Shown: piece by piece, positions 35,485-41,254 of the stretch
How positions within the stretch are numbered: the stretch's first letter is position 1
Layout: every line of letters begins with the position of its first letter
From: Shigella phage CWP003
Reading direction: 5' to 3' (one strand)
Sequence record: OL856099
DNA length: 64,000 nucleotides
Translations under genes and position numbers: made by a program
Notes under the pieces: generated by a model
Told to the model about the DNA's origin: nothing
Seen by the model: the letters and a program-made list of their open reading frames with translations, nothing else
The model's database searches: none

Positions 35485-35538
35485 ATTAGCCTCCTACAAA
35501 AAGGCCGCCCATTAGGACGGCCACAGATTCACGATTCG

Positions 35539-36090
35539 TTATACAGTGTACGGAGTACCGTCTTGATTCAACCGCACGATGAACTTAAGGTCGACACCAA
35601 TGATTTCACGCGTATCAAAGATCACATAGTTGTAACGACGCTGACCAGCAATGTTTGGGTTGGTGTGAGAGTCGGTCACAACTTCCTGCGCAACCTGAAT
35701 GCCTTCTTCTTTAAAGAACTTGCGCCATTCAGCAAGTTCAGCGGCAGTCACGTGCATACCAAGATGGCTAACCTGATTGTCGTGCGCATCGATGTATTCG
35801 ATGTTTTCGTGAATCCAGTTGCAACCTTTTGTATAGTCAAGAATTTCAAGCTCAAGAGGCTTACCAGCTCCGCCATCGGTGCCGTTGCCAGCCTGATAGT
35901 TGAAGCGCAAGTCAGCTTCGTTGGTGCAATCGCCGCGCTGACCCTTAAAGACATCAGCTTCAAATACGCGACCAGTAGCAACAACGTGATCATGGAACCA
36001 TTCTGTCAGGCCGATTTTAGCCAGGAAATTCTGTGCGCGCTGAGCACCTGGAATTGACAGGGCGATTTGTTCAATTTTAAAATGTGGCAT
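35539..36090 (-). CDS. hypothetical protein, possibly VOC/glyoxalase-like
   Basis: AAGGAAA RBS; weak resemblance only. Confidence 0.3.
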   Translation of the reverse strand: MPHFKIEQIALSIPGAQRAQNFLAKIGLTEWFHDHVVATGRVFEADVFKGQRGDCTNEADLRFNYQAGNGTDGGAGKPLELEILDYTKGCNWIHENIEYIDAHDNQVSHLGMHVTAAELAEWRKFFKEEGIQVAQEVVTDSHTNPNIAGQRRYNYVIFDTREIIGVDLKFIVRLNQDGTPYTV

Positions 36091-36180
36091 TTTGTTTCCT
36101 TAATTAAATATTATTGATTAATTACTGTGTTGTCTTCGTCCTGTTTTTCAGGAGCAGCGACAACTTCAAATGTTCTTGAT

Positions 36181-36864
36181 TTATTTACCAAATGGAATAT
36201 CAGTACCAGACATAAAGCGCCATGCGCCCGTAATTAAGATATGGCGAATGAAGTCAGCAATTACTTGCGGCTCAGTCTCCAATCCATTCATCAGCGCCTT
36301 TTTCTGGTATTCAGCAGCATACTCAGGAGTCCAGCCGCGAGTCGCGCAAACAGCATCTTCAATCTGTTTGGACATGCCAGTACCACGTAGCTTGTTAGGA
36401 CTAATAGAGAATACCGTGATCCCGTATTTAGGCGTAAGCTCGTGAGCCATCTGCTTGCTAATCATGAGCGCAGCAGCCTTGGAAGCATTATAACACAAGC
36501 TGGACGTCATAGGAATATGCGCAGCGTTGGAAACGATGTTGATCACAAAACCTTTGTTGTCAATAAGACTTTTCAGCGCGGCCTGAGTCGTGTTGACGAA
36601 AGAGAAGGCGTTGGTGTGCATAACGCGATTGAACTCTTCGTAGTTAACATCTTCGAACCAGTTGTTGGAGTTGACGCCAGCGCAGTTGATCAAGCCTTCT
36701 ACGTCGTATTGAGAGAGAAGCTCTTTCATCTGTTTCGCGTTACGGATGTCATAGCCGTTCTCCAAATCAATACCGACAACTTCATGACCGTAAGCGCCAA
36801 GGGTGTCAAAAATGGATTTACCAAGACCGGAATTGCAGCCAGTTACAACAATTACTTTTTTCAT
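36181..36864 (-). CDS. short-chain dehydrogenase/reductase (SDR)
   Basis: N-terminal VVTGCNSGLGKS (TGxxxGxG) and catalytic YNASKAA (YxxxK). Confidence 0.7.
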   Translation of the reverse strand: MKKVIVVTGCNSGLGKSIFDTLGAYGHEVVGIDLENGYDIRNAKQMKELLSQYDVEGLINCAGVNSNNWFEDVNYEEFNRVMHTNAFSFVNTTQAALKSLIDNKGFVINIVSNAAHIPMTSSLCYNASKAAALMISKQMAHELTPKYGITVFSISPNKLRGTGMSKQIEDAVCATRGWTPEYAAEYQKKALMNGLETEPQVIADFIRHILITGAWRFMSGTDIPFGK

Positions 36865-36929
36865 TTATTTATCCTTTTTGGACTTCGTTTCGATGAGATA
36901 AATATAACTCATCGAAACGCACAAGTAAA

Positions 36930-37802
36930 CTATTTATTGAAATTAATATTATGGGTGTTGACAAGACGTTCACACATGGCGCTGTAAACACCATCATCGT
37001 GTATTGAGTCTTCGTGCTTCAGGCCGCTGATTGCGAAGCGTGTAAGCTTGACAATCTTAAGCTCGAACAGATGCCACATGTGGTAGTCTTCCGGCGTTTT
37101 CAACGTCACGCCATTAGGGAAAAGCACCTGCATAACCTGACCTACCATCACAGCGTTATCGCCATAGACCGCGTTGCGCTCACGGAAGGTTGCTGCCATC
37201 GCATCAAGAATATCGGCGGCAGTTGCCGGAGATTGTTCAACTTCCACAGCCTTAGTCTCTTCTTGCCCTGTTGCACTTGGATCAATTGCTAATTGTTGCA
37301 CCACTTCACCTGCCTTGCAAAGATTAAATGTAAAAGCGATTTTATTTTGAGCAACGGAATTATAATACAATGCTTCATCTTGCATCCGCGCGAGTACGTC
37401 TTGTCGGTCGTCGAATACATTGATGATTCGATAATCGCCGTGCCGCAATGCGTGCGACAGCCATGCAGATTTCATAATAGTTGATGGACGTTTGTCGCCA
37501 TAGTCTCTCATCTTGATTGTAAATTCATCAAAAGGGAAAACATTGTCCAGACGTTCAAAAGTCACTTGTCTGTATTTTTCTGGCCTTGCAGTCCAATATT
37601 CAACCGCCTCACCGCGAAGAGAGGCCGACTCTACTGCTGATGCAATGTGAGGATAGAACTGATCATAACCAATACCGCTGTGATAATCATCATAGTCTGA
37701 CAACGGACCTGCCACCTTGATGCGGTCTAAGCGCCAACGGTCATCAAACAGCGTTCCGTCAAGGTCGAATACGTTTAAGATTTCGCTGTTTTTAATGCTC
37801 AT
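36930..37802 (-). CDS. HAD-superfamily phosphatase-domain protein
   Basis: HAD motif I VFDLDGTLFDD near N-terminus; C-terminal half unassigned. Confidence 0.55.
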   Translation of the reverse strand: MSIKNSEILNVFDLDGTLFDDRWRLDRIKVAGPLSDYDDYHSGIGYDQFYPHIASAVESASLRGEAVEYWTARPEKYRQVTFERLDNVFPFDEFTIKMRDYGDKRPSTIMKSAWLSHALRHGDYRIINVFDDRQDVLARMQDEALYYNSVAQNKIAFTFNLCKAGEVVQQLAIDPSATGQEETKAVEVEQSPATAADILDAMAATFRERNAVYGDNAVMVGQVMQVLFPNGVTLKTPEDYHMWHLFELKIVKLTRFAISGLKHEDSIHDDGVYSAMCERLVNTHNINFNK

Positions 37803-38602
37803 CCTTTTGATACTCCATCTTTAGCAACTGGATTGTTGGTGATTGGCATCGCACTCCAAAACTGGATGCGCAACTCTTCTTGCTGTGCCGTGGTATCCAT
37901 CCAATCACGATACCAAGGGCAATGGGCTTTACCGTGACGAGGAAATGCGCACTTACCCATACCAATGCATTGCGGCTGCAGTAATGGATTCGCCCAAGGG
38001 TGCACCTTGAGGACTTCCGCAACCATTGCGCGGAATACTTCTTGATACTCTCCTTGCGTGCGCGTGCACAAGCGGTTTGACGCCATCTGCTGCAGCGTGC
38101 GCAAGTTGAACTTTGCCATGATATGCGTTTGCATATTAGAAGGCAACACGGCACGTGCATCTTGAATCTCTGCGCCAGCCGCGCGAAGCTCTTGATACAA
38201 AGCGTCGATAGTCGCCATCGCATCATCCCACTTCTCTGCCAGTTCAGCTGCCTTCTCGTCATGGCGAGTCCATCCCTTTGGATCATCCTCTGGGTAAGTG
38301 AATTTAGCAGGACGAATCGCATCAAATGCAGACGACTCCTGAGCGCGGCTGGTGCGTTCTTGATATGCGCCTGTGCGTGTGCGTACCATCTGATGGGTCA
38401 TGTTCTTTGATACAGCTGTGATATCAAAGATATAGTCCACAAAGTCAAAAGGCGACTTGATTGTATCAAGCATGTAGCGCCAATGCTCTTGCTTCTCTGA
38501 TTCCGTCATCTCAGAGACAGGCTTACCAGTCATGCGCGTGTTCTTTGTTTCCAGCAAAAGGTCAAGTGCATCTTGGGTGTATCGAATTAATTCAACTTTC
38601 AT
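37799..38602 (-). CDS. thyX: ThyX-like (flavin-dependent thymidylate synthase family) protein with variant motif
   Basis: SPFDFVDYIFDI...HQMVRTRTGAYQERTSR parallels the ThyX SPFEH...HQLVRHR...S.RY region, with Thr in place of the motif His. Confidence 0.5.
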   Translation of the reverse strand: MKVELIRYTQDALDLLLETKNTRMTGKPVSEMTESEKQEHWRYMLDTIKSPFDFVDYIFDITAVSKNMTHQMVRTRTGAYQERTSRAQESSAFDAIRPAKFTYPEDDPKGWTRHDEKAAELAEKWDDAMATIDALYQELRAAGAEIQDARAVLPSNMQTHIMAKFNLRTLQQMASNRLCTRTQGEYQEVFRAMVAEVLKVHPWANPLLQPQCIGMGKCAFPRHGKAHCPWYRDWMDTTAQQEELRIQFWSAMPITNNPVAKDGVSKG

Positions 38603-38615
38603 TTTAATTGTCCTA

Positions 38616-39062
38616 TTAACGGTAATTCACTAGTTGCTGATCACCAGAGAAGGTGCAATGATAAACGAATTGTGCGTTATAAAGCAACTGAAAACTTTTC
38701 TTTGGTTCATTATTAGAACTCATTGATGTAAAGATTTCTGCACCAGAACGGTTTTCACCAATCAGATTGATAAAGCCGCCAGTTGAACGAGGTTGAACGA
38801 AAGTGAAACGTTGCATCCACGGAGTCCGGTTGACACCTTTTCCGGTGAATCCTTGAATCTGAATATTCAGACCTTCTTGCTCATTCACACCGATGTAAGT
38901 GGTAATCTTCGCACCAGTCGTTGCTGCGGTCTTACCGTCCATCGCTTCGCAATCGTAAACAGCGATTGAATCGGAAGTACGGATGGCGGCTTCAGTCGCT
39001 TCCATATACATGGTGCCGAGAATAGCAGTTGCGGCAAGCGCGATTCCAGTGATTCGTTTCAT
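38616..39062 (-). CDS. secreted small protein with signal peptide
   Basis: AGAGGA RBS; MKRITGIALAATAILGTMYMEATEA signal-like N-terminus; two Cys. Confidence 0.5.
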   Translation of the reverse strand: MKRITGIALAATAILGTMYMEATEAAIRTSDSIAVYDCEAMDGKTAATTGAKITTYIGVNEQEGLNIQIQGFTGKGVNRTPWMQRFTFVQPRSTGGFINLIGENRSGAEIFTSMSSNNEPKKSFQLLYNAQFVYHCTFSGDQQLVNYR

Positions 39063-39127
39063 TTTCGTTTCCTCTATGAGTTCTGCTTCAATGATTAAAG
39101 TATACGCCCATTGAAGCAGAAAGCAAA

Positions 39128-40123
39128 TTATTTATTAGCAATATAAGCAAATTTTTGATAGTTATTTGCTTTGATGAGTTTTTCGACTTCAACAAGGTCA
39201 TGAGCGACGTCATCAAGCAAGATATTGCGCCAGGTCGCGAATCGACCGACACTAAACACGTTTAAATCCATAGTCAGCTGCAGGAGTAGGGCGTGTCGCA
39301 AGTCTTTCGGAATGTCGACAATCTTGCCATATTTCTGGTCGACCTTTTCAACTTCTTCAAGAGCAATGTCACTCCATGAAAGGCCAAAGGCCGTCAACAC
39401 TTCGTCGACTTCTGCGCGCAGCTTCATGTCACGGTAACGAGTGATGCCGCCTGCGGCTTCAACTGCAGCTTCACTCACGCTGACCAAAGGAATTGTTTCA
39501 ATGATAAGCGTGTCACCAGTAATTGATGCGCGGTAAGTTCTGACGGAGTAGTCAGGGAAGTAAATTGTCTGATACAAATCACACTTACGTTTAATCTTAA
39601 AGCGGTAAACGCGAATGTTTGCTTTATCAAATGAGAAATCAAGCTTTTGATCAATTCCAGCAAGCTTCATCATGACTGGCAGCGGCGACGTGTTGATGAT
39701 TGGCGTCTCGCTATAGCCGCAAAGAGTATCAACCGGAGTATTAAAGAATATGCGGTCACCCAGTTTGTCGACAAGCTGATCATAAAAGTCATCAGGCGCA
39801 ATATAACGCGTTGCAGTCTTAAGCTTCATGATTGAACGGCTGCCAAATTGATTGGTGACCTTCATGGAATACATATTGGCAAGGTTGATTGGGCAATGGT
39901 CGTGATAGTAGTTGCCGCGAAAATACACAGCCTTGTCAACTGTCACGGCCTTAAAAGGGATTCCGGTAATACGGCTTACTTCTTCGCCGCGAAAGCGTAG
40001 CAGCGCCTTGTGCTGTTGCGCTCGTTCCCCTGCTTCGTACACAATAGAGTTCGGGAAGTGACACGCGGTGATAAGTCCTGCCAATCCGCCGCCGATAATC
40101 ATTACAGGTTGTTTCATGTTCAT
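39128..40123 (-). CDS. FAD/NAD(P)-binding oxidoreductase
   Basis: N-terminal Rossmann motif VMIIGGGLAGL; AAAGGA RBS. Confidence 0.6.
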   Translation of the reverse strand: MNMKQPVMIIGGGLAGLITACHFPNSIVYEAGERAQQHKALLRFRGEEVSRITGIPFKAVTVDKAVYFRGNYYHDHCPINLANMYSMKVTNQFGSRSIMKLKTATRYIAPDDFYDQLVDKLGDRIFFNTPVDTLCGYSETPIINTSPLPVMMKLAGIDQKLDFSFDKANIRVYRFKIKRKCDLYQTIYFPDYSVRTYRASITGDTLIIETIPLVSVSEAAVEAAGGITRYRDMKLRAEVDEVLTAFGLSWSDIALEEVEKVDQKYGKIVDIPKDLRHALLLQLTMDLNVFSVGRFATWRNILLDDVAHDLVEVEKLIKANNYQKFAYIANK

Positions 40124-40255
40124 TTGTCCTTTGTGGGTGATATGAGAAGTATAATAGCTAAATTATTTTACAGCAACAAGTCATTTTATTTAGTACAGAT
40201 GAAAAAAGACCCACAACAAGTGTGGGTCAATTACCGCTGCATAACCGTCCTAAGG

Positions 40256-41095
40256 TTATTCCGCTTGATCACCGTCTTCGGCATCTTCGTTGGGTTCAAC
40301 ATCGACAAACTCGATGTGGCCCATCTCTTCCAGCTTGCTCAGGTAGGAGCGAACGGAAGCGCCAAACAGTTGATCTTTAACTTTTTCGCCCAGCTCATCG
40401 ATAGACTGCGCCACGCCAACTTCGCCTTCTTTGATCGCCGCCAGAACGCGTCCACGGGTGGAATGCTCTTGCGGCTGGCTCAGGCCATTGCCAGTGTAGA
40501 TGAAGTGAGTAGCTTTTGCACGACGTTGACCGTTTGCCTTTTTAGCGGCCTTACGTTCTGCGATGGCTTTGCGACGTTCTTCAGCTTCTTTCTTACGCTG
40601 TTCTTTCTGTTGTTCTGCAGCTTCTTTCGCCGCAATCTTAGCAGCTTCACGCTCTGCCTTGCGTTTCGCTTTAGCTTCTTCTTTGGCCTTCTCTTTTTCG
40701 GCCTTCGCTGCAGCACGGGCTTGATCACGCTCTGCTTTCTTAGCAGCAGCTTGTTCAGCTTTCAGGCGCTTGGCTTCTTCTTTAGCCTTTGCCTTTTCGA
40801 TTTCTTTTGCTGCTTTAGCGGCTTCACGCTCTGCTTTCTTAGCAGCAGCCTTTTCTGCACGCTCTTTAGCTTTCTTAGCTGCTTCTTCAGCACGCTTCTG
40901 AGCCTTCTCATCAGCAGCCTGCTTGCGTTTCAGGGCAGCTTCTTCACGCTTGGCTTGTTTTTCCTGCTCACGCTTCTGGCGTTTTTCTTCGGCTTCTTTC
41001 TTTTTAGCCAGACGTTTTTCTTCAGCCACGCGACGGCGTTCTGCTGCAGCTGCTTGCTTTTCTTCTTTAGATAATACTTTGATTGCTTCGGCCAT
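40256..41095 (-). CDS. K/A/E-rich low-complexity helical protein with small C-terminal globular domain
   Basis: about 200 aa of AKKAEREAAKAAKE-type repeats; RBS TAAGGAC before ATG at 41095 (table ORF starts at GTG 41101). Confidence 0.5.
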   Translation of the reverse strand: MAEAIKVLSKEEKQAAAAERRRVAEEKRLAKKKEAEEKRQKREQEKQAKREEAALKRKQAADEKAQKRAEEAAKKAKERAEKAAAKKAEREAAKAAKEIEKAKAKEEAKRLKAEQAAAKKAERDQARAAAKAEKEKAKEEAKAKRKAEREAAKIAAKEAAEQQKEQRKKEAEERRKAIAERKAAKKANGQRRAKATHFIYTGNGLSQPQEHSTRGRVLAAIKEGEVGVAQSIDELGEKVKDQLFGASVRSYLSKLEEMGHIEFVDVEPNEDAEDGDQAE

Positions 41096-41254
41096 ATTCA
41101 CAGTCCTTAAATAAATTAGTTTATTTTATATTCCCCGTTTGGGATAACTTAATTATGCCTTCAGTCGCCGCCAGTAGCAACTAAAAACTCTGGCGGCAAT
41201 GCCACTTTAATTAAACTGATTTTCAGTTTTATTTTTCGTAAATTTACGTCAACA

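Follow-up and report, generated by a model that had tools for sequence, protein, structure and literature searches.

A strongly diverged ThyX-family protein of a Wifcevirus phage and the flavoprotein that probably works with it

Introduction

What chemistry should be expected of a flavin-dependent thymidylate synthase whose signature motif is altered? The question is raised by a stretch of 64,000 nucleotides from Shigella phage CWP003 (record OL856099; the whole analysed stretch is hereafter called the window), which encodes a protein resembling the thymidylate synthase ThyX with a threonine in place of the central histidine of the RHR motif. A first-pass annotation, made from the letters alone, had proposed either a functional variant or a protein repurposed for a different flavin-dependent pyrimidine chemistry, and considered relevant the separate flavin adenine dinucleotide (FAD) oxidoreductase encoded next door. 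The mechanism of ThyX, which is a target for antibacterial drugs, was established on a small number of canonical enzymes. Around the gene (positions 36000-41200, 5.2 kb) the window is 99.9% identical to Escherichia phage vB_EcoM_WFH (WFH; NC_048194/MK373776), and the whole window essentially corresponds to this phage of the genus Wifcevirus. We use the WFH names gp065 for the ThyX-like protein and gp067 for the flavoprotein (Table 1). Our analysis reveals that gp065 belongs to a large phage-specific, partner-associated ThyX branch not described in the literature that we searched. As for its function, we give about an even chance to gp065 and gp067 forming a two-component flavin-dependent one-carbon transferase acting on C5 of deoxyuridine monophosphate (dUMP), with thymidine monophosphate (dTMP) still as the product.

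Results and Discussion

Membership of the ThyX family

gp065 is a genuine, strongly diverged phage ThyX-family protein. Alignment against ThyX profiles, the check proposed in the first-pass annotation, gave a match with Pfam Thy1 (PF02511) over profile positions 2-191 of 191 (E value 2.9e-30; 105.9 bits for a cut-off of 24.8 bits), and phrog_85 ('thymidylate synthase') was matched with an E value of 6.9e-39. Profile-profile alignment with hhalign of the gp065 clade against Thermotoga maritima and canonical ThyX proteins spanned 218 columns with a probability of 99.94% (E value 2.5e-37). The AlphaFold2 (AF2) model of gp065, built from 67 homologues with a predicted local distance difference test (pLDDT) score of 88.2, was matched by Foldseek to T. 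maritima ThyX (1o26/1o27) with a probability of 1.0 and a template modelling (TM) score of 0.74. The original family assignment is thus confirmed by all four approaches. Public records for gp065 all name a thymidylate synthase, the deposited product in NC_048194 being a "putative FAD-dependent thymidylate synthase". The nearest solved ThyX by sequence matches with an E value of only 3.7e-5, so that gp065 is distant in sequence from characterised ThyX enzymes.

Active-site losses on a conserved binding framework

Thr75 of gp065 lies opposite His79 of T. maritima ThyX (Tm) in three independent alignments, and the Q-x-V-R-T-R sequence is common to all 120 of the closest homologues (57-99% identity); Thr75 is therefore neither a chance occurrence nor a sequencing oddity, and the RTR variant noted in the first-pass annotation is real. 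The RHR motif hydrogen-bonds the AMP phosphate as well as the FMN ribityl and phosphate moieties of FAD (PMC6514825). Among 105 sequences of the derived clade to which gp065 belongs, the centre of the motif is Thr in 67, His in 19, Ser in 8, Gln in 6 and Asn in 5, and it is His in all 19 canonical sequences. The His79 position has thus relaxed in this clade to any hydrogen-bonding side chain. Confinement to polar, hydrogen-bonding residues fits the described role of the motif at the FAD phosphate (PMC6514825), a role that is plausibly retained in gp065. Derived members with an intact RHR motif (e.g., locus L005) exhibit all other derived features and the same partner gene; consequently, the His-to-Thr replacement is not the defining change. 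On this point the first-pass interpretation did not hold: it had the family and the importance of the neighbouring gene right, but mistook which substitution matters. The peptide it quoted (gp065 residues 50-86) sets SPFDF against SPFEH, and this also hides a His59-to-Phe replacement that was overlooked.

The heavier functional losses are those of Tyr91 and His53, above that of His79. According to the alignment considered, Tm His53 corresponds to Ile48 or to a 5-residue gap, and Ile, Leu or Val occupies this position in 113 of 116 derived representatives. Tm His59 is replaced by Phe54, with Phe found in 116 of the 136 nearest cluster representatives. In the active-site loop, Arg90 is kept (R86) whereas Asn85, Ser88 and Tyr91 are replaced by Gln81, Thr84 and Ala87, respectively; R86 and A87 are both invariant in the alignment of the gp065 clade. 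Tm His178 becomes Arg181 and Trp181 becomes Gly184. The clade also has a tyrosine of its own, Tyr186 of the G-E-Y-Q segment. In canonical enzymes, Tyr91 and Ser88 are described as 'strictly conserved' and critical by mutagenesis, Tyr91 being proposed to act as the general acid when the carbinolamine loses its hydroxyl, while His53, hydrogen-bonded to Tyr91 and Asn85, stacks against the folate pterin when the enzyme is oxidised or against the reduced flavin (PMC11940539). All three members of this His53-Tyr91-Asn85 network are absent from gp065. The derived clade is defined by loss of the network together with His59 and Trp181, with the FAD-phosphate and dUMP framework kept.

The positions invariant in the clade alignment (Tm residue first) are Gln75=Q71, Arg78=R74, Arg80=R76, Arg90=R86, Arg147=R150, Asn163=N166, Arg165=R168, Arg174=R177 and Ser/Thr55=S50, and R74, R86, R150 and R177 are also invariant in a broader alignment of 25 sequences sharing 29-60% identity with gp065. 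The dUMP-binding and polarising set (Q71, R74, R86, R150, R177) is entirely kept in gp065, where the FAD-phosphate and ribityl ligand set consists of S50, R74, the polar T75, R76, R168 and R181. The S50 and R168 positions correspond to the FAD ligands Ser71 and Arg190 of Mycobacterium tuberculosis ThyX (PMC6514825).

A largely viral clade

When 1.84 billion cluster representatives were searched exhaustively, 1591 clusters were retrieved at E <= 0.001. The best 150 of these 1591 were aligned, and most of them carry the full suite of derived substitutions. In a rough neighbour-joining tree, the 105 Tyr91-less sequences fall into one 107-tip clade, and in 33 of 40 bootstraps none of the 19 canonical sequences lies within it. 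The 120 closest homologues of gp065 are mostly found on 67-74-kb contigs of PB1-like or Wifcevirus-like myoviruses, whose hosts are Escherichia, Serratia, Erwinia, Pantoea and Burkholderia. The family also includes Pbunavirus proteins (~49% identity) and one of Luteibacter phage Pluto.

Cellular relatives were sought by scanning bacteria and archaea, one genome per species, for the pattern [ANS][FM]THQ[LFM]VR[THS]R, which yielded more than 515 relatives. Among the 80 most like gp065, 77 display the canonical G-H...E-H, R-H-R and A-Q-W-E signatures, with S-Q-R-Y in 75 and S-Q-R-F in two; these are carried by contigs labelled Bathyarchaeia, Methanomassiliicoccales, Planctomycetota, Deferribacter abyssi, Thermincola, Slackia and others, with lengths of 0.2-4.6 Mb in several cases. 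The derived state is seen in only three of the 80 (L004, L005 and L006), all of which bear the phage-type gene pair, and L004 clearly encodes the replication module of a phage (AAA_24, DUF669, helicase, exonuclease, PolIII-alpha, ligase). The derived form of ThyX appears essentially viral.

Inteins interrupt three metagenomic derived relatives (P0157, P0166 and P0263) at or just after the R-x-R motif (~residues 74-78), and that of P0166 matches Pfam Intein_splicing. Inteins typically target functionally critical sites. The other long ThyX-like members owe their length to inteins or to extensions with no Pfam match, save a sub-threshold match to Pam3_gp59 in P0160. Long R-Q-R relatives (470-570 residues) were considered as possible tandem-duplicated ThyX proteins of the Chlamydia style, an idea that was rejected: each has only one ThyX domain, preceded by an N-terminal extension that varies, and one of them contains an intein.

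gp065 also carries four invariant cysteines, C179 in the core and C212, C218 and C228 within a 60-residue C-terminal extension. Across representatives the set is all-or-none (all four in 53, none in 61, partial in 2), a pattern that argues for a single unit. It is probably a structural metal site, for which these residues are candidates, linking the extension to the core. The gp065 cysteines align with those of canonical cellular Cys-type ThyX proteins (loci L007-L083), which have a Cys at the Tm Asp176 position followed by a C-terminal C-x5-6-C-x7-9-C; in this cellular subfamily the set may form a Zn or Fe-S site. Since canonical enzymes share it, the Cys set does not mark a new function. It is absent from every solved ThyX, and a literature search on ThyX with Fe-S or Zn found nothing about the set and no name for the subfamily.

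A near-obligate partner flavoprotein

The AF2 model of gp067 (pLDDT 87.6) has a two-domain FAD-binding fold with an N-terminal beta-alpha-beta GxGxxG unit and an acidic ribose ligand. In sequence, GxGxxG and numerous basic residues are invariant, E30 is conserved, and the C-terminal part contains a GRFAxW..LLDD motif. Its 1954 homologues are mostly annotated as "hypothetical". No Pfam or NCBIfam model matches gp067, the GLF and Amino_oxidase models included; a profile search of the PDB matched the GxGxxG stretch alone (E value 0.09), and a fold search of BFVD found only uncharacterised phage proteins. gp067 is nonetheless very probably an FAD protein with an anionic, possibly nucleotide, substrate. 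Compared with members of the superfamily of UDP-galactopyranose mutase (UGM), protoporphyrinogen oxidase (PPOX) and amine oxidases, it is short (331 residues versus 365-510) and shares 12-17% identity.

All derived-type loci examined have a gp067-type gene immediately upstream of the ThyX-like gene: WFH, Pbunavirus SN, Luteibacter phage Pluto, L004-L006, two metagenomic lineages, a 40-kb Vibrio podovirus and the 203-kb Rhizobium phage RHph_TM61, in which the two genes are 1.9 kb apart. When 80 IMG/VR loci were anchored on the partner, a ThyX-like open reading frame (ORF) was found downstream on the same strand in 76; among the remaining four, three are truncated. Conversely, when anchored on a different, Cys-less ThyX-like branch, the partner was found upstream in 76 of 80 loci with a median gap of -12 nt, the four exceptions having at most 1.8 kb of upstream sequence. 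As a negative control, a hidden Markov model of the partner found no match in the 77 canonical cellular ThyX loci. The reading frames of the two genes often overlap, across unrelated phage lineages, and the pair is widespread in phages (well over 1000 contigs). The relevance attributed to the adjacent FAD protein at first sight is therefore borne out, as a near-obligate genomic partnership.

Fusions between the two genes were also sought and none was found. The only candidate, the metagenomic P0208 (277 residues), matches the partner over its first ~100 residues and the ThyX-like protein over its C-terminal part; it looks like a deletion hybrid, and is probably a deletion or assembly artefact.

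A two-component dUMP methylation system as the favoured reading

With several supposedly essential residues gone and a second flavoprotein gene almost always just upstream, gp065 probably operates in another way than textbook ThyX. Under the reading we favour, gp065 would bind FAD and dUMP and add a one-carbon unit to C5 of dUMP, the product most likely being dTMP destined for phage DNA replication. gp065 would probably be one half of a two-protein system, in which gp067 could supply the half-reaction once served by the lost residues, either by re-reducing the ThyX flavin or by handling the one-carbon donor, while Thr75 would stand in for His79 as hydrogen-bond partner of the FAD phosphate. 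That the arginine framework is intact speaks for a functioning active site able to bind both FAD and dUMP, and the inteins inserted at R-x-R point to a functional site there. The dTMP product is supported by Rhizobium phage RHph_TM61, in which genes for dUTPase, the dUMP supplier, and ribonucleotide reductase (RNR) stand beside the ThyX-like gene.

Several observations weigh against this proposal. The superfamily to which gp067 is compared does not consist of typical NAD(P)H:flavin reductases, and the division of labour between the two proteins is speculative for that reason. An R-Q-R sub-branch with a long N-terminal extension has no partner. The curated thyX equivalog model TIGR02170 (NCBIfam) scores gp065 at 81.8 bits, just under its cut-off of 87.9 bits, against 158-172 bits in the canonical Cys-type relatives and 90-97 bits in other derived members. 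The Tyr91 position is occupied by Ala, Val, Thr, Phe or Ile across the clade, with Tyr in 3 of 116 representatives, and the Ser88 position by Ser, Thr or Ala, while mutation of Tyr91 slows flavin oxidation ~1000-fold in canonical ThyX (PMC11940539). Moreover, our literature search found no biochemical or genetic data on members of the clade or on the ThyX proteins of PB1-like or Wifcevirus phages.

The cassette and its neighbours

Two strong minus-strand intrinsic terminators bracket six genes in WFH, in the order partner, 148-residue protein, ThyX-like protein, HAD phosphatase, short-chain dehydrogenase/reductase (SDR) and p183 (Table 1). The order partner/ThyX-like/HAD/SDR/p183 recurs in Pluto and in the phage locus L005 from a metagenome-assembled genome (MAG) assigned to Bacilli, at just 31-41% identity.

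Table 1. Features of the ThyX-like gene, its partner and the surrounding cassette (positions in the window; Tm, T. maritima ThyX).
Feature	Position	Strand	Evidence or remark
ThyX-like protein, 267 aa	37799..38602	minus	ORF, ATG 38602 to stop 37799; WFH gp065
R74-T75-R76, variant ThyX (RHR) motif	38375..38383	minus	Translation; aligned with Tm R78-H79-R80
I48-K-S50-P-F-D-F54	38441..38461	minus	Equivalent to Tm H53-E-T-P-F-E-H59; both His gone
Active-site loop Q81-E-R-T84-S-R86-A87	38342..38362	minus	Equivalent to Tm N85-E-L-S88-G-R90-Y91
Four invariant Cys: C179 (in R177-L-C-T-R181), C212, C218, C228	37919..38068	minus	Conserved in 121/121
Partner flavoprotein, 331 aa	39128..40123	minus	WFH gp067, phrog_4828; compact UGM/protoporphyrinogen-oxidase/amine-oxidase-like FAD protein
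148-aa protein, signal-peptide-like N-terminus MKRITGIALAATAILG...	38616..39062	minus	Between partner and ThyX-like gene
HAD (PNKP-type) phosphatase with ~100-aa C-terminal domain	36930..37802	minus	Pfam HAD_PNKP, E 5.4e-8; phrog_4889
SDR, FabG-like, accessory	36181..36864	minus	Pfam adh_short, E 1e-31
p183, 183 aa, last cassette gene	35539..36090	minus	Sub-threshold glyoxalase/VOC match alone
Intrinsic terminator upstream of cassette, after TolA-like gene	40208..40228	minus	8-bp stem then TTTTTT; annotated in NC_048194
Intrinsic terminator closing cassette	35503..35522	minus	8-bp stem, 7 G-C pairs, then TTTTT; annotated in NC_048194

The 148-residue protein has no family match and no homologue in any of the other fetched loci; it is probably a lineage-specific insertion outside the enzyme system. 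The start codon of the HAD gene overlaps the stop codon of the ThyX-like gene (ATGA), and the two kinds of gene occur in this order in SN, Pluto, L004, L005 and L084/85 as well. The HAD product is annotated as 'polynucleotide kinase/phosphorylase'; the phosphatase domain covers residues ~1-178, no kinase domain was detected, and the C-terminal domain is encoded by a separate ORF in the metagenomic locus L084 (9314-9649). The SDR gene occupies the same position in Pluto and L005 and is absent from Pbunavirus SN; likewise, p183 has co-linear homologues in Pluto and L005 and none in Pbunavirus. Searches of Pfam (E values up to 10), the PDB and PADLOC with the HAD C-terminal domain, p183 and the 148-residue protein gave nothing usable. 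In two other loci a gene for a small S-adenosylmethionine-dependent methyltransferase replaces those for SDR and p183, after the ThyX-like gene and HAD or DUF3310 (L004, 7178-7675; L086, 9390-9914), and DUF3310 is found in the cassette slot of some other lineages. The cassette thus carries lineage-variable accessory enzymes. It is preceded by a gene for a 281-residue Lys/Glu/Ala-rich protein (40256-41101; phrog_4765), called 'TolA protein' in some records, only the C-terminal ~90 residues of which are conserved in SN and Pluto.

The ThyX-like gene always resides in the replication module, beside genes for a proofreading exonuclease and PolIII-alpha. In RHph_TM61 (L170, 2111-10654), the partner, the ThyX-like gene (with Asn at the motif centre), a HAD hydrolase, dUTPase and RNR beta/alpha are co-directional, which is the clearest tie of a derived ThyX-like gene to the metabolism of the deoxyribonucleoside triphosphate pool. 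Across 171 loci that bear the pair (1.59 Mb in total, with the WFH locus L001 among them), neither ThyA nor a second, canonical ThyX was found. Consequently, gp065 is not redundant with a conventional thymidylate synthase there.

Comparison with known systems

Canonical ThyX (T. maritima TM0449, M. tuberculosis Rv2754c; EC 2.1.1.148) has the same fold as gp065, and shares with it the FAD-phosphate ligands Ser/Thr55, Arg78, Arg80 and Arg165, the dUMP ligands Gln75, Arg78, Arg90, Arg147 and Arg174, and a like genomic role as a DNA-precursor gene located by replication genes. The canonical enzyme is a homotetramer in which three subunits contribute to each active site, and it forms dTMP from dUMP, methylenetetrahydrofolate and NAD(P)H. 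gp065 differs by its RTR motif, the residue losses described above, its 60-residue Cys-pinned C-terminal extension and its co-encoded partner flavoprotein. The closest cellular relatives, the Cys-type ThyX proteins, have in common with gp065 the VSRAMTHQLVR-x-R sequence, the Cys at the Tm Asp176 position and the C-terminal Cys triplet; unlike gp065, they keep G-H53, E-H59, R-H-R, S-Q-R-Y91 and A-Q-W-E and have no FAD-like neighbour.

The ThyX fold is known to serve in other pyrimidine chemistry. PolB, from the polyoxin biosynthesis of Streptomyces cacaoi/viridochromogenes (PDB 4p5a/4p5b), is one such enzyme and is among the structural matches of gp065; unlike gp065, it belongs to bacterial secondary metabolism, and the review that describes it does not mention a partner flavoprotein (PMC5954106). 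MnmE-MnmG, which modify uracil C5 in RNA, offer a mechanistic analogy only, with a GidA/Rossmann rather than a ThyX fold and a tRNA rather than a free nucleotide as substrate. The adduct they form is later trimmed by the FAD-dependent oxidoreductase domain of MnmC. In this chemistry a flavin N5-methylene is passed to uracil C5, where capture by a nucleophile is possible instead of reduction (PMC8989533).

Alternative readings

The main alternative, which we consider possible, although on the unlikely side, is a neofunctionalised system in which a methylene is put on C5 of dUMP but not reduced to a methyl, yielding a modified pyrimidine nucleotide that would end up in phage DNA and protect it from restriction. 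The methylene would be caught by water or an amine, or processed by gp067 and tailoring genes (HAD, SDR and p183; the methyltransferase elsewhere). The lost residues (Y91, H53, N85) are exactly those for carbinolamine and methylene processing and for folate gating, and the obligate second flavoprotein is of an oxidase/mutase superfamily. The six-gene, terminator-bounded cassette, with a five-gene order kept in the Luteibacter phage and the Bacilli-MAG phage and with lineage-variable 'tailoring' genes such as the methyltransferase of L004 and L086, is consistent with such a pathway, as are two precedents: PolB, a ThyX paralogue that methylates UMP/dUMP at C5 (PMC5954106), and the FAD-dependent steps of thymidine hypermodification (PMC8989533). 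It would also fit the unexplained restriction resistance reported for Wifcevirus, of which site avoidance is no full explanation since the window still holds 14 EcoRI, 7 EcoRV and 5 EcoKI sites, but that resistance could stem from anti-restriction proteins. However, neither R177, which binds uracil O4/N3, nor the arginines for the dUMP phosphate have changed, and none of the substitutions suggests a site for a new nucleophile. No ThyA-type dUMP hydroxymethylase, 5-hydroxymethyldeoxyuridine DNA kinase, aGPT-Pplase, glycosyltransferase or other transferase of the known thymidine-hypermodification pathways was found among the cassette genes and other larger ORFs of the window scanned with Pfam, PHROGs or PADLOC, nor in the RefSeq annotation of the record from 30000 to 71283. 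The SDR and p183 genes, being missing in Pbunavirus, are not core, and the gene in RHph_TM61 is surrounded by an ordinary dUTPase/RNR cluster. PB1-like and Wifcevirus genomes are routinely sequenced and modified bases are reported in none of the literature examined, where no functional data were found on ThyX in phage DNA modification or on the thymidylate synthases of PB1-like phages. JG024 DNA is cut by SacII (PMC3008698), although the SacII site contains no T. A wider formulation, that the ThyX-like protein and its UGM/PPOX-like partner constitute an unrecognised two-flavoprotein nucleotide-modifying system making a non-thymine 5-substituted deoxyuridylate, or using a non-folate/non-NADPH route, and that in Wifcevirus, aided by the additional HAD, SDR and p183 genes, it is the missing 'genome protection mechanism' underlying the broad restriction-modification resistance of these phages, seems to us rather doubtful.

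It is unlikely, in our estimation, that gp065 is instead an ordinary stand-alone ThyX making dTMP from dUMP, methylenetetrahydrofolate and NADPH, its substitutions being neutral drift and the flavoprotein an unrelated, merely syntenic neighbour. The Pfam Thy1 cut-off is passed comfortably, every public record says thymidylate synthase, the substrate- and FAD-binding arginines are intact, and replacing His by Thr is conservative for a phosphate hydrogen bond. In addition, the S88A variant of T. maritima ThyX is presumably still active (crystal structure 3g4a is among the structural matches). Nevertheless, the pairing exceeds synteny, as it is kept, often with overlapping frames, in PB1-like myoviruses, the 40-kb Vibrio podovirus, the 203-kb Rhizobium phage and phage-like contigs from MAGs of Desulfocapsa, Bacilli and Dehalococcoidia, whose gene sets otherwise differ, and the partner is absent beside canonical ThyX. 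Several independently critical residues are moreover jointly lost throughout the 107-tip clade, and the ~1000-fold cost of mutating Tyr91 in the canonical enzyme (PMC11940539) tells against drift as well. At the other extreme, the loss of Y91, H53 and H59 and the score under the equivalog cut-off would suit a catalytically dead ThyX-fold protein, a dUMP/FAD-binding regulator or structural subunit; catalysis would then fall to the partner, an 'orphan' enzyme that is the better conserved of the two and has many invariant basic residues. We find this highly improbable, given that Q71 and six arginines (R74, R76, R86, R150, R168 and R177) do not vary across more than 100 diverged cluster representatives, as in a working active site, and that inteins target the motif.

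Some observations on restriction in this group of phages may be recorded here. Avoidance of restriction sites was considered as the explanation of restriction-modification resistance and set aside as insufficient alone, EcoRI, EcoRV and EcoKI sites being ~2-fold under-represented yet present. GATC is strongly depleted in the window (positions 1-64000), with 97 occurrences for 273 +/- 18 expected under a second-order Markov model, and BamHI sites (GGATCC) are absent for 8.5 expected; this pattern suggests selection against Dam/MboI-type or GATC-containing targets. The hard-to-sequence genome and methylome of phage PaP1 were examined as a sign of DNA modification in PB1-like phages and discarded, PaP1 being a PAK_P1-like Pakpunavirus and no relative.

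Implications for ThyX biology

We thus favour the two-component reading of gp065 and gp067, under which flavin-dependent uracil methylation would have a variant form assisted by a partner protein. A very large natural clade without Tyr91, His53, His59 and the RHR histidine, yet with the substrate-binding arginines, offers a test of which residues the chemistry needs. The partner family, with ~2000 homologues and no Pfam model, gains a concrete genomic association. If the product is simply dTMP, the practical gain would be more modest, namely an improved annotation ("ThyX-like, partner-dependent") together with a new ThyX subfamily, marked by its Cys set, for structural study.

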